DNA from: a virus
DNA: 41,577 bases
Virus record (IMG/VR): IMGVR_UViG_3300045988_115369
Direction: 5' to 3' (one strand)
Part shown: positions 126 through 23,831 of the stretch, in pieces
Numbering within the stretch: position 1 is the stretch's first letter
How the letters are laid out: each line of letters opens with the position of its first letter
Position numbers and translations under genes: made by a program
The notes under the pieces: generated by a model
The model's database searches: none
What the model saw: only the letters and a program-made list of their open reading frames with translations
Told to the model about the DNA's origin: nothing

Positions 126-155
126 AAGAAAAAGAGAGAACGAAAATGTTCTCTC
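126..155 (-). terminator. Hairpin plus U-tract between phage promoter phi-1 and the RNAP start codon
   Basis: Minus strand reads GAGAGAAC-AUUUUC-GUUCUCUC followed by UUUUUCUU. An 11-nt U run lies further downstream, before the RBS (AAAGGA). Confidence 0.6.
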
Positions 156-176
156 CCTCTATATGTGCCACAATTA
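154..176 (-). promoter_or_regulatory. Phage-RNAP promoter phi-1, directly upstream of the RNAP gene
   Basis: Minus strand TAATTGTGGCACATATA|GAGGGAGAG. It has the same 17-nt length and purine-rich start region as the T7 promoter TAATACGACTCACTATA|GGGAGA. Confidence 0.8.
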
Positions 177-1785: not shown

Positions 1786-1812
1786 TCCACCCTTTCTTTT
1801 TAATCCTAGCCT

Positions 1813-1881
1813 GTCTCATCAGCATGGGTAGGCTATCCCCCATGGACTAGACACATCCTCTCTTGTGTGCCTAGTTTCGAC
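1813..1881 (-). ncRNA. Type II hammerhead ribozyme, copy A
   Basis: Minus-strand RNA: GUC-GAAAC-UAGGCACAC..GUGUGUCUAG-UC^-CAUGGG(GGAUAGCCUA)CCCAUG-CUGAUGA-GAC. All core nucleotides are present. Predicted cleavage falls between 1845 and 1844. Confidence 0.85.
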
Positions 1882-1882
1882 T

Positions 1883-2230
1883 TTATGCAATGAGTTCACC
1901 TGTCGTGATATCCACCACTTGTGCATGTAGCACGTCCAGTCTGTAGTTTTTGTTGTTTGCCACCATCTTTACAAGGGAAAATGGAATAATTCCATTTGTT
2001 CTACAGTGTTCATCAATGAACCATCGAATGTGTCGCCGTGTTGTCATGCTGTATAGCCCCGTGATTTCGAGACTATCCAGTGTTCCCTTGATTACAAGGG
2101 TATTGTAAGAGTACATTTCATATTCTGTAGACACATTGTCCTTGTTTGTGTCTACCCATACCGTGTAATTTTTTGTTGTGTGCTTGCCTTTTTCGATGTT
2201 GAACCATTTAAGCATTTTCATCATCCCCAC
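1883..2230 (-). CDS. Early protein, function unknown
   Basis: 115-aa ORF. The start is GTG at 2230 or ATG at 2224. The stop lies 1 nt from the 5' edge of hammerhead A. Confidence 0.6.
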   Translation of the reverse strand: MGMMKMLKWFNIEKGKHTTKNYTVWVDTNKDNVSTEYEMYSYNTLVIKGTLDSLEITGLYSMTTRRHIRWFIDEHCRTNGIIPFSLVKMVANNKNYRLDVLHAQVVDITTGELIA

Positions 2231-2462
2231 TTTCTTCTTCCTCTTCTTCTGAAATACCTAACGTCTCAAAAATCCAGTCTGAATCGAACCACATGATATC
2301 GTTTAATTCAGTTCTTCCAATTCCATCGGGATAGAGTTCTTCAATCATGTCACAAAATTCCTCCCCTTTGCCCTCTCTTTCAATACGTTCTGCCGTATCT
2401 ACAGCCCCACTCCATGCCGTTCTTCTAATGTCATTAAAATCCATTTCATCAAATACCTTCAT
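2208..2462 (-). CDS. Small acidic early protein with a poly-Glu tail
   Basis: Start moved to the ATG at 2462 (RBS AAAGGATGG). 84 aa, ending EEEEEESGDDENA. Confidence 0.55.
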   Translation of the reverse strand: MKVFDEMDFNDIRRTAWSGAVDTAERIEREGKGEEFCDMIEELYPDGIGRTELNDIMWFDSDWIFETLGISEEEEEESGDDENA

Positions 2463-2497
2463 AATAATTCCATCCTTTCTTTTTAATCCTGTAGCCT

Positions 2498-2567
2498 GTC
2501 TCATCAGAACGTGGGCGGCTATCCCACATTGACTAGACACACCCTCTCTTGTGCGTCTAGTTTCGAC
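2498..2567 (-). ncRNA. Type II hammerhead ribozyme, copy B
   Basis: Minus-strand RNA: GUC-GAAAC-UAGACGCAC(AAGAGAGG)GUGUGUCUAG-UC^-AAUGUGGG(AUAGCCG)CCCACGUU-CUGAUGA-GAC. Predicted cleavage falls between 2531 and 2530. Confidence 0.85.
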
Positions 2568-2569
2568 TT

Positions 2570-2935
2570 TTACTTGCTTTTCTTCACAAGCACAATTTTC
2601 AATTTATATGCCGTGTCTAAATGGTTGATATGGGTAACATCATCAAAGCAATATGCAACTAAGTTCCCTGCATAGTCACAACGTACCTTGAGAGTGCGCC
2701 CTGCATAAAAGCACACATCACCTTGTGCAATATCAGGTGAATCGTAACTACTGAATTTTTCAAGAATTTTGATTTCAATGCATTCCCATTTACCGTTTTC
2801 ATAACCTTCTTGCATTGCTATGAAATTTGAAATGCTGCCTTTAATCCTGCCGATAGCAAATTCATCAAACATAATCAACCCATTGTCTTTTGTCCATGTG
2901 TTCATGCCCCATGCCGTGATTTCTTTTCTTTCCAT
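2570..2935 (-). CDS. First early protein, function unknown
   Basis: Start moved to the ATG at 2935 (RBS GAAAGGAAG). The stop lies 2 nt from the 5' edge of hammerhead B. Confidence 0.6.
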   Translation of the reverse strand: MERKEITAWGMNTWTKDNGLIMFDEFAIGRIKGSISNFIAMQEGYENGKWECIEIKILEKFSSYDSPDIAQGDVCFYAGRTLKVRCDYAGNLVAYCFDDVTHINHLDTAYKLKIVLVKKSK

Positions 2936-3436
2936 GATTTTTCTTCCTTTCTGAATGTGTTCCGTTGTTCCTACACGCTTAACAAAAAAATTTGAGACAC
3001 CATCTCTTGATGGTTGGAATACCACTGATTAGTTCAATGGTTTAGAGACTAGATACAGCATGATTTCACTACCTTTCACCTACACCGTTCCATTTCATCG
3101 TCTGCGCTTGCCCCGTCATCACAAGATACCTTGCTAGACGTTGTAAGCACACACTCTATGAGACTGTCCACTACTCAGCCCTGCCGTATATCGCAAGCTA
3201 CTTTCATGACTTCTCAGTGTGTATCTTCACTGTCATGTTGCCACCGCTTTTCCCGATGACTTTCTTTTTTTCGTATGGTGTGAATTGATACTACGCATGC
3301 AGTAAGTTCACCATTCGCATTTTTCAGCTATTCAGTTTTCAAAGAACCCGATGATGTTTTGGGGTATCCCATCGCGTCACCGTCAATTTTTCGTTCTTAG
3401 TGGTATCACTTCCTTTCGTTCGTTCACTGTGCCTAC

Positions 3437-3465
3437 ATTGTAGCACGTTGTTCCTACATTGTCAA
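3437..3465 (-). promoter_or_regulatory. Host sigma-70/SigA early promoter P1
   Basis: Minus strand TTGACA, a 17-nt spacer and TACAAT, with an extended -10 TG (TGCTACAAT). Confidence 0.85.
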
Positions 3466-3654
3466 GAAGATTTTTCCTCTAGTTCTCTCTGTCGTCTTAC
3501 CATTCCGCCGTGAATACGTTGCCGTTCGCGTTCGCAATGTGCGTTGTTCTGAGTTCTTCCACCACGCTATCCATACATGTGCTACAGATAGCATTTTCAG
3601 AATCGGGGCGGTGCGCCTTGCGGTGTTCCGTCCGTGTCATCCTTGACTGTCCAT

Positions 3655-3683
3655 ATTGTATCATGATGTTCCTACACCGTCAA
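3655..3683 (-). promoter_or_regulatory. Host sigma-70/SigA early promoter P2
   Basis: Minus strand TTGACG, a 17-nt spacer and TACAAT, with an extended -10 TG (TGATACAAT). The spacer is a paralog of the P1 spacer. Confidence 0.85.
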
Positions 3684-3825
3684 GGATAAATTTGCATTTC
3701 TTTGTGGAGAAATTTTGTTCGCATGGTATACCATACCCCCGTAGGGTATCCATGATTGTCAACCATGGCATGCTAGTAGCACGTTAGTAGTAAGAGATTA
3801 AATCTTACAAGTACATATATAGGCA

Positions 3826-3847
3826 AACAGGGCTTGCTCGCCCTGTT
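3826..3847. terminator. 8-bp GC-rich hairpin between the integrase region and the early control region
   Basis: AACAGGGC-TTGCTC-GCCCTGTT. The minus strand continues with TTTGCC. Confidence 0.4.
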
Positions 3848-3862
3848 CCATTTAAGTATAAT
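3834..3862 (+). promoter_or_regulatory. Candidate host-type promoter for the integrase
   Basis: Plus strand TTGCTC, a 17-nt spacer and TATAAT. The -10 sits inside the palindrome GTATAATA-A-TATTATAC. Confidence 0.4.
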
Positions 3863-4005
3863 AATATTATACTAATACATTCCACCCTGCCCCAGCGATA
3901 ACGGCGAGCGCGTGGAGGGTACGGGGGAAAACAGCCGGGGCAATTTTAATGAATACCCTTTCACAATTTTTATAATTTTTTGTTTTAAGAAGGAGGAACA
4001 TCATC

Positions 4006-5160
4006 ATGAAAAGACAAAGGGCACCACGAGGGCAAGGAAGTATCACACCATACGGAGATGGAAAATTCAAAGGCATCATCACCATTGGATACAAACTAGA
4101 TCCAGTGACGAAGAAGAATAAACGTCTCACAAAAACCTTTACAGGAAAGACAAGGAAAGAAGTTCAAGCAAAGATCACTGAGTATCAGTACAAAGTAAAT
4201 GCAGGGAAGATCAATCCATTGGCAGCTCCCCTTACATTCAAACAGTACAGTGAACGATGGTTAATGATGAAAAAGACAACACTGAAACCACAGACATACA
4301 GAAACTATGAGAGTAATATGCAGTGTCTTGATTTTGGCAACAAAGTGATGAAAGACATAACAGTTTCAGACGTCAACACGCTGCTCCTAACATTGCTACA
4401 GACACTCTCCCCTGCCACTGTACGAGGAAGGCACACCCTATTGAAAAGTGTCTTTGAAGGAGCAAGAAAGGAAAAACTCATTATAGAGAATCCTGTAGAA
4501 GACAGCATGCGTATCAAGGCACAGGTAGATCACACTGTGACAGAAATGCATGTCTTAACGAAAGAAGAGAGTACGAATGTTCTATTAAAAGCTAAGGAGA
4601 TGAAAGCTCCCATATGGTTCTACCCTCTGATACGTACTGCCTTAGAGACAGGGATGAGAAAAGGAGAGCTGCGTGCCTTACAGTACAAAGCACTGGGTAA
4701 AGACACCATCTATATAAAAGCAAGTGTAGAAGACAGTGCAGGGAAAGGGGCAACTCTCACAACGCCTAAGACACGTGCCTCTGTAAGGAGAATACATGTG
4801 TCTACATCACTCATTGAGATACTACAGGCTCTTCCCCATAAAGATGAAAACAGTTTTGTCTTTCACACTAAGAATGAGACTTTAATTGCTAATAGTGATA
4901 TACAGTACTACTTTAATACGCTAAAGAAAGTAAGTAACATAGACAAACCACTTCACTTCCACGATCTAAGACACACCCATGCCACCCTTCTTATCATGGC
5001 AGGTGTGAACATCAAGACCGTCTCTACTCGCCTAGGTCACGCATCTGTATCCATCACGTTAAACAGGTACACACACGCCCTTCCGCAGCAAGATAAAGAA
5101 GCTAGTGAAATGATTTGTAGTATGCTACTATCGGATACTACGATGAAAGACAATCAGTAA
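4006..5160 (+). CDS. int: Tyrosine recombinase / phage integrase
   Basis: RBS AGGAGG lies 8 nt upstream. The N-terminal Arm-type DNA-binding segment is GSITPYGDGKFKG...GKTRKEVQAKI. Catalytic motifs are HDLRHTHAT and LGHASVSITLNRYTH. It is the only plus-strand gene. Confidence 0.95.
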   Translation: MKRQRAPRGQGSITPYGDGKFKGIITIGYKLDPVTKKNKRLTKTFTGKTRKEVQAKITEYQYKVNAGKINPLAAPLTFKQYSERWLMMKKTTLKPQTYRNYESNMQCLDFGNKVMKDITVSDVNTLLLTLLQTLSPATVRGRHTLLKSVFEGARKEKLIIENPVEDSMRIKAQVDHTVTEMHVLTKEESTNVLLKAKEMKAPIWFYPLIRTALETGMRKGELRALQYKALGKDTIYIKASVEDSAGKGATLTTPKTRASVRRIHVSTSLIEILQALPHKDENSFVFHTKNETLIANSDIQYYFNTLKKVSNIDKPLHFHDLRHTHATLLIMAGVNIKTVSTRLGHASVSITLNRYTHALPQQDKEASEMICSMLLSDTTMKDNQ

Positions 5161-5212: not shown

Positions 5213-5261
5213 AAATACCGTATGACATAATATCGTCCTTATTAACAGACATACGGTATTT
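5213..5261. terminator. 12-bp inverted repeat between the convergent int and membrane-protein genes
   Basis: AAATACCGTATG, 25 nt, CATACGGTATTT, then TTCTG. The loop is large for a classical terminator. Confidence 0.4.
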
Positions 5262-23755: not shown

Positions 23756-23831
23756 TGGTGTCTCTTTAAGGACTTGAACCTTAAACCTTCTGGGCATGAA
23801 CCAGATGCTCTAACCATTGAGCTAAAGAGAC
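23756..23831 (-). tRNA. tRNA with anticodon CAU (elongator Met or Ile2 type), CCA encoded
   Basis: The 76-nt sequence folds by hand as a cloverleaf: acceptor GTCTCTT/AAGAGAC, D arm GCTC/GAGC, anticodon arm TCTGG-TTCATGC-CCAGA, T arm TAAGG-TTCAAGT-CCTTA, discriminator A, then CCA. It is not initiator-like: the 1:72 pair is G:C and there is no triple G:C in the anticodon stem. Confidence 0.93.

Follow-up and report, generated by a model that had tools for sequence, protein, structure and literature searches.

We describe the untranslated leader of an early operon in IMG/VR virus record IMGVR_UViG_3300045988_115369, whose whole stretch of 41,577 nucleotides (nt) is referred to here as the window. 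The leader occupies positions 2936 to 3436 of the minus strand, between a strong host-type promoter and the first early gene, and comparison with related sequences indicates that it is a real, conserved, folded RNA whose folding is well supported.

The leader and its genomic setting

The first and last 119 nt of the window are identical (1-119 = 41459-41577), and the assembly is therefore circular, with a length of ~41.46 kb. All long open reading frames (ORFs) but one, the integrase gene, are carried by the minus strand, and among them are a T7-type primase-helicase and a family A DNA polymerase (PolA). The same strand bears ~8 copies of a phage-specific promoter, TAATTGTGGCAC(G/A)TAGA.... 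A relative resides as a prophage in Dialister sp. i34-0019-2H8 (L072, NZ_BAABYQ010000001), with an integrase that is 99% identical and ~93% nucleotide identity over the integrase, regulatory and first early-gene region. We interpret the virus as a temperate, T7-like phage of a Negativicute (Dialister). The features on which the argument rests are given below, with the strand in brackets.

4006..5160 (+): tyrosine integrase gene, the sole plus-strand gene
3683..3655 (-): P2, host-type promoter, TTGACG, 17-nt spacer, TG-n-TACAAT, scoring 10/12; TGTAGGAAC in the spacer at 3676..3668
3465..3437 (-): P1, host-type promoter, TTGACA, 17-nt spacer, TG-n-TACAAT, scoring 11/12; operator motif in the spacer at 3458..3450
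2950..2943 (-): Shine-Dalgarno sequence of gene 1, AAAGGAAG, followed by the ATG at 2935..2933
2570..2935 (-): gene 1, the first early gene, 121 amino acids (aa), no Pfam or PHROG match
176..149 (-): promoter for the phage RNA polymerase (RNAP), followed at 160..129 by a 13-bp hairpin with U runs, close before the RNAP start codon, which corresponds to position 88
38982..41546 (-): single-subunit RNAP gene (Pfam RNA_pol, 9.9e-102; PHROG 414)
38969..38941 (-): host-type promoter after the RNAP gene, consensus with extended -10, driving two ribbon-helix-helix (RHH) genes
38905..38726 and 38707..38537 (-): the two RHH ORFs, encoding small proteins

The build ascribed to P1 in the original prediction, a consensus -35 and an extended -10 with TACAAT at a 17-nt spacing, is borne out. 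Its rank as the strongest host promoter is shared, since an extended -10 promoter scoring an equal 11/12 lies after the RNAP gene. Transcription from P1 would start near 3430. P2 is a tandem partner 218 nt upstream, and the untranslated leader measures ~495 nt from P1 and ~715 nt from P2; the stretch 2936..3436 would accordingly form the downstream two-thirds of an early-operon leader probably transcribed by the host RNAP. P2 is conserved in all relatives, and so is P1 save in two of them (L086 and L088), where it is deleted and both P2 and the leader core are retained.

Folding and coding capacity of the leader

Homologues were gathered from 71 IMG/VR loci by means of the gene-1 protein and the RNAP, and an exact 20-mer of the leader retrieved the same 12 viral contigs plus 12 further metagenome contigs containing the region. 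After removal of duplicates there were 24 distinct leader sequences, which fall into group 1 (n=19, ~97% identical) and group 2 (n=5). Block by block, identity between the groups ranges from 54 to 88% over the core that they share (3336..2936), and in group 2 the first ~100 nt after P1 are swapped for an unrelated, longer stretch (~270-340 nt in 3/5). The leader was not recognizable outside this clade: blastn of 2500..4100 gave no match in the GenBank phage collection, nhmmer with leader and promoter profiles matched only the close clade among the 71 loci, and a covariance model of 3213..3074 yielded chance-level matches only in 37 more distant loci. The original prediction had suggested a comparison with all Rfam models. 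Scans of the leader region with Rfam 15 (2400..4200, E up to 10) produced only chance-level matches within the leader (E 0.87-7.7), and scans of the whole window and of a group-2 leader placed no family in it. Neither Rfam nor a search for core patterns disclosed a hammerhead or other known ribozyme inside the leader, the hits lying only downstream of gene 1. The leader is thus a candidate structured RNA motif that is absent from Rfam and confined to one clade. The arrangement is found more widely: in distant clades, whose RNAPs are 53-61% identical, an opposite-strand integrase gene is followed by 1-5 sigma-70-type promoters, a 400-500 nt ORF-free leader and the first early gene; these leaders have no detectable sequence or model similarity to that of the window.

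Folding was assessed with RNAalifold on an alignment of the core (A2; 24 sequences, 412 columns). The consensus fold reaches -66.5 kcal/mol with 87 pairs, 11 of which show a compensatory change, and 99% of cells are paired; when the 3' partners are slid by 1-3 columns, 0-2 compensatory pairs are left. A null of 100 column shuffles within conservation classes gave -39.4 ± 5.3 kcal/mol, which places the observed core at z = -5.2. The shuffles contained 1.9 ± 1.4 compensatory pairs (maximum 6) and 8 ± 6 compensatory cells, against 11 and 56 observed. The reverse complement of the core folds to -41.3 kcal/mol, the level of the null, so the structural signal belongs to the transcribed strand. By segment, z was -3.9 for 3336..3130, -4.2 for 3200..3060 and -4.8 for 3062..2936. 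The interval between P2 and P1 (3650..3470) is structured too, with z = -5.9, an alifold energy of -40.1 against -20.2 ± 3.4 in shuffles and 5 compensatory pairs against 0.7 ± 0.9, and the folded region therefore begins at P2 and not at P1; this interval is less strand-specific than the core, its reverse complement folding to -35.5. Coding controls (four integrase segments, gene 1 and gene 2) gave z values between +1.5 and -0.9 and no more compensatory pairs than the null, the same test gave -0.9 to -2.4 for the sequence upstream of P2, and the variable 5' segment of the P1 leader showed no structure signal in group 1 alone (z = -1.5, 0 compensatory pairs). Folded as a single sequence, the window leader reaches z = -2.1 for the minus strand, compared with -0.8 for the plus strand. 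Conserved structure is present in the homologous leaders, and the expectation of a long untranslated, structured RNA behind a strong host promoter is supported by the strand-specific signal, the excess over shuffles and coding controls and the compensatory changes. The elements of the leader, from 5' to 3', are as follows.

3648..3466 (-): interval from P2 to P1, the upstream leader part of predicted P2 transcripts; structured
3431..3337 (-): variable 5' segment of the P1 leader, with a -35-like TTGACG that lacks a -10; replaced in five relatives
3336..3000 (-): conserved structured core with the RNAalifold consensus structure
3314..3275 (-): nested hairpin, outer helix AUGGUG/CACCAU (3314..3309 with 3280..3275) around an inner hairpin (3304..3289)
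3283..3237 (-): almost invariant purine-rich block UCACACCAUACGAAAAAAAGAAAGUCAUCGGGAAAAGCGGUGGCAAC, with only four variable positions in the 24 sequences
3232..3215 (-): hairpin CAGUG, 8-nt loop, CACUG; two adjacent compensatory pairs (A-U to C-G, G-C to A-U)
3197..3180 (-): hairpin CUUGC, 8-nt loop, GCAGG; one compensatory pair and several one-sided G-U changes
3164..3087 (-): long irregular hairpin of ~19 bp; -27.4 kcal/mol in the window, z = -2.95; six compensatory consensus pairs
3061..3029 (-): upstream ORF MLYLVSKPLN, 10 codons; GAAAGG 10 nt ahead of its ATG, spaced as in gene 1
3041..3021 (-): hairpin ACCAUUGA, loop ACUAA, UCAGUGGU; -9.2 kcal/mol, z = -4.0
3013..2984 (-): hairpin CCAUC/GAUGG (3013..3000), hypervariable hexamer and a U7-10 run (2990..2984) of polymorphic length

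The helices named in the original prediction fared unevenly, two being supported and two not conserved. The AUGGUG/CACCAU helix around a UACUGC...GUAGUA hairpin is present in both the minimum free energy (MFE) and the centroid structure, folds alike in group 2 (window and group-2 versions both at -13.1 kcal/mol, z ~ -2.3) and carries one compensatory pair in the outer helix (U-A to G-C); RNAalifold favours an alternative pairing for the region. CCAUUGA/UCAGUGG (3040..3022) is confirmed by a closing pair that is A-U in 10 and U-A in 14 sequences. GCUUGC/GCAAGC is not kept in group 2, where the hairpins at 3232..3215 and 3197..3180 carry compensatory changes instead, and the mutually exclusive pairings of GUCAU, AUGAC and GUCAUG, envisaged as a switch, are broken there by a change of AUGAC to GUCAC. 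The almost invariant block includes a hairpin, GUCAUCG/CGGUGGC (3260..3254 with 3246..3240); as this helix never varies, it speaks neither for nor against pairing. The blocks adjoining it are only 54-74% identical between the groups. The arms of the long hairpin are 54% identical between the groups, and its consensus pairs are nonetheless kept. It lies ~150 nt from the gene-1 ATG, invites comparison with an irregular hairpin of the RNase III type and is weaker in group 2; we consider it a candidate double-stranded RNA element for processing or stability.

The leader has no conserved coding capacity. ORF listing confirmed that no frame of at least 60 aa lies inside 2936..3436. The only long frame is an upstream extension of gene 1 that starts with GTG (2570..3025, 151 aa) and has no ribosome-binding site (RBS), and an N-terminal extension of gene 1 from the GTG at 3025 was rejected, because length polymorphism of the T run (7-10 T) and indels break the frame in relatives. 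Short ATG-started ORFs were tabulated over all 24 leader sequences. The claim that they lack a convincing RBS holds for all but the upstream ORF at 3061..3029, the sole one with an RBS. This ORF may be translated. With its RBS it is retained in 23/24 sequences with turnover of the start: group 2 has an in-frame 9-codon version, MYSVSKPLY, in which the ATG and the Shine-Dalgarno-like motif are both displaced by a few nt. Its peptide is not conserved, the substitutions being non-synonymous and tracking the hairpin instead of the peptide.

Could the product of the region nevertheless be one or more small proteins? The best case is MRSINSHHTKKRKSSGKAVAT (3298..3233), whose ORF occurs in 19/24 sequences and in a longer, fused version in the divergent group. 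No Shine-Dalgarno sequence was found at a usable distance from this ORF, its ATG sits inside a hairpin loop, and both start and frame differ between the groups as a result of a 2-nt indel that fuses it to another frame in group 2. Nucleotides under the ORF hardly vary at any of the three codon positions, a pattern not expected of coding sequence. We regard a small-protein product as highly improbable.

Candidate operators and the 3' end of the leader

The motif TGTAGGAAC has four exact copies in the genome: in P2, in P1, in a third element near gene 1 that we call O3, and just 5' of the -35 of the promoter after the RNAP gene. It was considered as a promoter for the phage RNAP and ruled out, since its few exact copies are always at host-type promoters or O3 and the true phage promoter is TAATTGTGGCAC.... 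The -10 of the promoter after the RNAP gene is also spanned by an inverted repeat, CACACCTAT...ATAGGTGTG (38941..38981). The RHH fold of the two small proteins encoded behind that promoter is supported by Pfam matches to RelB (34.4 bits, cut-off 22.4) and RHH_9 (25.9 bits, cut-off 23.4) and by matches to RelB structures in the PDB. Among the window and 11 relatives, three types of operator motif and of RHH N-terminal beta-strands are found.

Type A: operator TGTAGGAAC; RHH 1 SVRVRIN; RHH 2 EIKIRIT
Type B: operator TGGATACAC; RHH 1 SLRIRIN; RHH 2 QFRLRIS
Type C: operator TGGGAGTAC or TGTACGCAC; RHH 1 SINVRVN; RHH 2 RIKIRLT
2992..2955 (-): decayed third promoter copy in the window, with A/T tract, TTAAGC, motif-bearing spacer and CACATT; candidate operator O3, TGTAGGAAC, at 2975..2967

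The operator type at P2, P1, O3 and the RHH-gene promoter matches the beta-strand type in 12/12 phages. Such co-variation is the pattern expected of immunity-type repressor-operator pairs, and the two RHH proteins are candidate immunity repressors. Because the motif types co-vary with the RHH types at P2, P1 and O3, the leader is bracketed by candidate operators. O3 itself lies ~30 nt upstream of the gene-1 start codon. The stretch that contains it, AAATTTTTTTGTTAAGCGTGTAGGAACAACGGAACACATTC, aligns with P1 and P2 over the A/T tract, the -35 position, the spacer motif and the -10 position, and the three copies form one direct-repeat family (D1). The hexamers of the copy that carries O3 are poor, TTAAGC and CACATT in type A phages, and a critical position is missing in type B as well. 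In several relatives a second copy of the cassette of T run, operator-like sequence and RBS precedes another early gene (L013 3836..3934, L017 4274..4349, L022 6507..6575, L027 3905..3973); it carries a perfect 10-bp inverted repeat, TGCGGATGTA...TACATCCGCA, and resembles a reusable gene-cassette junction. No such second copy occurs in the window.

The common descent of the three promoter copies raises the possibility that the leader is merely debris of decayed tandem-promoter duplications, at most spacer DNA between operators, in which RNA folding is incidental. The paralogy of P2, P1 and O3 (repeats D1, D2) is what such an origin would leave behind, as are further -35-like hexamers without a -10 at ~3386 (TTGACG) and ~3343 (TTGAAA) and a 5' segment that can be replaced. 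One distant relative, L066, has four to five real tandem promoters with comparable spacing, and its ACTTGACAACTGAATATAGC resembles TTGAAAACTGAATAGC of the window. The strand-specific structure and the compensatory changes, however, far exceed those of shuffles and coding controls, and the almost invariant block does not look like a promoter. Phased looping is not what constrains the region, since P1 and O3 are 483 bp apart here and ~670-750 bp apart in relatives. On balance we judge the debris explanation unlikely.

What does the 3' end of the leader do? The original prediction had seen a weak hairpin and a U7 run there and proposed, among other roles, an attenuator. Hairpin and U run do exist; they do not amount to a credible, canonical intrinsic terminator. 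The stem has 5-6 bp, a 9-nt gap that includes the hypervariable hexamer precedes the U run, and a terminator scan made no call at 3013..2984. Attenuation consequently lacks a key part, and the alternative helices that it would use are not conserved. We read the 3' end as a decayed promoter copy with a candidate operator rather than a terminator. A translation-dependent form of attenuation deserves separate consideration, in which ribosomes on the upstream ORF would remodel the hairpins 3041..3021 and 3013..3000 and so decide whether transcription ends at the U run or whether the gene-1 RBS is accessible. The ORF shares the RBS geometry of gene 1 and persists in frame in group 2 despite its shifted start, the covarying hairpin 3041..3021 holds the ORF's stop codon in its loop and has the U7-10 run downstream, and the MFE structure pairs UUCUUU (3346..3341) with the gene-1 Shine-Dalgarno region. 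Yet this sequestering helix shows no covariation, the start codon is ATT in L003, the non-synonymous changes in the peptide follow the RNA pairing, and the separation of hairpin and U run, uncalled by the scans, counts equally against this form. We therefore find it quite improbable.

Likely role and known counterparts

The closest known counterpart of the leader is probably the early leader of T7. In T7, as Dunn and Studier reportedly described, three tandem host promoters (A1, A2 and A3) are followed by ~175-430 nt of untranslated leader and an RNase III site, R0.3, before gene 0.3. Cleavage by RNase III at R0.3 removes the A1-A3 leader and releases leader fragments. To our knowledge such long leaders are the norm in T7-like phages. 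The phage studied here shares with T7 a genome with a single-subunit RNAP, promoters of its own and nearly all genes on one strand; tandem strong host-type promoters head the early operon, several hundred untranslated, structured nt precede a small variable first gene, and the RNAP gene lies a few kb downstream of the leader. There are also clear differences. Sequence similarity to T7 is nil, the phage is temperate, with repressor-type candidate operators at its promoters and at the 3' end of the leader, its host is a Negativicute (Dialister), and other intergenic processing sites appear hammerhead-like instead of being RNase III hairpins. Two such elements were found in the window.

2568..2490 (-): hammerhead type II-like element after gene 1; 35.2 bits against an Rfam gathering score of 37; E = 5.6e-5 in the local scan
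1884..1806 (-): partial hammerhead-like copy before the fourth early gene, a 54-nt repeat, 91% identical, with all core motifs; it has no Rfam score and is hence termed hammerhead-like only

Both sit in intergenic gaps of the early operon, each followed by an RBS, and pattern hits recur at the same places in relatives. Hammerheads are known to flank genes in prophages near integrase genes, and a role in dividing long phage transcripts into shorter mRNAs has been proposed for them (Perreault et al. 2011, PMC3088659). The elements described here, between early genes and near an integrase gene, fit that description; the leader of the window itself, in contrast, has no hammerhead, and the best copy in the window remains below the gathering score. 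In L066 the leader ends in hammerhead core motifs immediately before the first gene, which suggests that in its clade the leader is cut from the mRNA. A second point of comparison is LUZ100, a T7-like Pseudomonas phage with temperate features, an integrase and a MarR-like repressor candidate (PMC10134795). It resembles the present phage in combining a T7-like genome with an integrase and a repressor candidate, and in having a phage-specific promoter directly before the RNAP gene (176..149 in the window). It differs in its host phylum and in its MarR-like candidate, where two RHH proteins are found here, and the terms 'leader' and 'UTR' do not occur in the main text of that paper.

We propose that the leader is a cis-acting, structured early-operon leader that governs the processing and stability of early mRNA and the access of ribosomes, and that is shut off by RHH binding; we hold this reading with moderate confidence, about evenly poised. 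P2 and P1 would start transcripts with ~715 and ~495 nt before the first start codon. How the early mRNA is processed, how stable it is and how readily ribosomes reach their first binding site would then depend on the leader hairpins, as in the T7 A1-A3 leader with R0.3, and the RHH proteins would shut the unit off at the operators in P2, P1 and O3.

Several observations weigh against this proposal. The consensus structure was derived and scored on one alignment, which is why the separate shuffle null was built. The homologues are close (Infernal effective sequence number 1.14), and independent compensatory events are few because most trace back to one division, that between the 19 and the 5 sequences of the two groups; only the A-U/U-A switch at 3034/3028 departs from it, dividing 10 from 14 sequences across both groups. 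For the 5' domain of the leader, RNAalifold and the single-sequence MFE give different structures, and the long hairpin of group 2 (-17.2 kcal/mol, z = -0.6) is no more stable than shuffles. At the nucleotide level the leader is conserved no better than the adjoining integrase gene (95-97% identical among relatives). We accordingly withdrew the claim that the non-coding region is conserved better than genes, as only gene 1 (mean pairwise identity 0.83) and the RNAP module (~77-80%) diverge more, and plain conservation of the leader therefore proves little. Moreover, transcription of the region and its start sites, any cleavage of the leader, the stabilization of mRNA and an effect on translation are all steps that we infer from sequence. 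Finally, the almost invariant block suggests sequence-specific recognition, beyond a plain stability role.

That block, partly single-stranded and partly hairpin, speaks for two other explanations. In the first, the leader would be a cis-acting RNA that modifies the host RNAP, like HK022 put RNA or EAR. The put RNA of HK022 is a cis-acting processive antiterminator: the nascent RNA binds RNAP and suppresses downstream terminators. The likeness would be one of position alone, a structured RNA just past the early promoters with terminator-like signals further down the operon. The early genes are separated from the RNAP start codon by a suitable signal, the hairpin with U run at 160..129, which may gate read-through of the host RNAP into the RNAP gene. 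The arrangement at 176..129 is conserved in close relatives, and a distant clade has a different hairpin and T run in the same place. The leader, directly downstream of the host promoters, would be well placed to act on the polymerase, and by carrying it through this hairpin could, together with the bracketing RHH operators, constitute a lytic-commitment switch of a temperate T7-like phage. We found no similarity to known antiterminator RNAs, at which no dedicated comparison was aimed, and no Rfam match, though, and the hairpin, which overlaps the start of the phage-promoter transcript, may have its function there. The idea is inferential throughout; we give a put-like action a low probability, and the switch built upon it is just as doubtful.

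In the second explanation, the leader would be released as an abundant, free, trans-acting non-coding RNA, for example a decoy or sponge for host defence or a regulator. Such an RNA would be produced as soon as infection begins, by the strongest host-type promoters; the leader is structured, and the release of leader fragments has precedents in T7 and apparently in L066, with its hammerhead-like element. Against this stand the lack of a processing site or terminator between leader and gene 1, the first hammerhead-like element coming after gene 1, and the facts that no target or partner was identified and no match was obtained outside the clade. A free RNA is thus very unlikely in our estimation.

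What are the implications of a cis-acting leader at this locus? How temperate T7-like phages silence, and then start, a self-amplifying RNAP circuit in lysogens is poorly understood. The locus offers a compact control region from a human-associated Negativicute, with two strong host promoters bearing type-specific candidate operators, a structured leader, ribozyme-like elements and a terminator-like hairpin before the RNAP gene, and this surrounding region is of more interest than the leader alone. If the leader only stabilizes or processes early mRNA, it would be a Firmicute-type counterpart of a textbook T7 feature. If the invariant block is recognized by RNAP, a nuclease or a defence protein, a new class of functional RNA would be at hand. 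The leader is best regarded as a clade-restricted variant of a known element, the long structured early-operon leader of the T7 group, from which it differs in its sequence, in the temperate control elements around it and in the ribozyme-like sites elsewhere in the operon.

Some further observations concern the neighbourhood. No other gene at the left end varies as much as gene 1, whose identity among relatives ranges from 63 to 99%, and in one relative an additional ORF is inserted in front of it; such variability is the expected pattern for an anti-defence gene at the position of T7 gene 0.3. The prophage-host junction in Dialister lies near window position 5244, ~85 nt past the integrase stop codon, and the host flank examined contains no tRNA gene. 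An attP site within 3700..4005 was ruled out, as the junction is 3' of the integrase gene. Matches to IMG/VR relatives often end at 5244 too, and these are probably excised or predicted prophages with different flanks. A 12-mer, UCACACCAUACG, is common to the leader RNA (3272..3283, minus strand) and the integrase mRNA (4043..4054, plus strand), and the leader hairpin ACCAUCAAGAGAUGG is similar to ACCAUACGGAGAUGG of the same integrase segment; both resemblances may be due to chance. A tRNA-Met (CAT) gene is encoded by the phage between late genes (23756..23831, minus strand). A long A/U-rich hairpin, GUUCCCAUAUAAAUAAUACCU...AGGUAUUACUUAUAUGGGAAC, with UUUUUU behind it lies beyond the RHH genes and the first phage promoters (~38345..38415, minus strand); by eye it resembles a counterpart of the T7 early terminator TE, and the terminator scan did not call it, probably on account of a long loop. 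Lastly, the motif TTTTCCCCCGTACCC occurs 80-100 nt from the integrase start (~3914..3932, minus strand; L066 1832..1850; L028 1243..1262). It is kept in clades with RNAPs that are only 53-61% identical, nhmmer matches around it reach yet more distant loci, and it may be an integrase promoter or a regulatory site.

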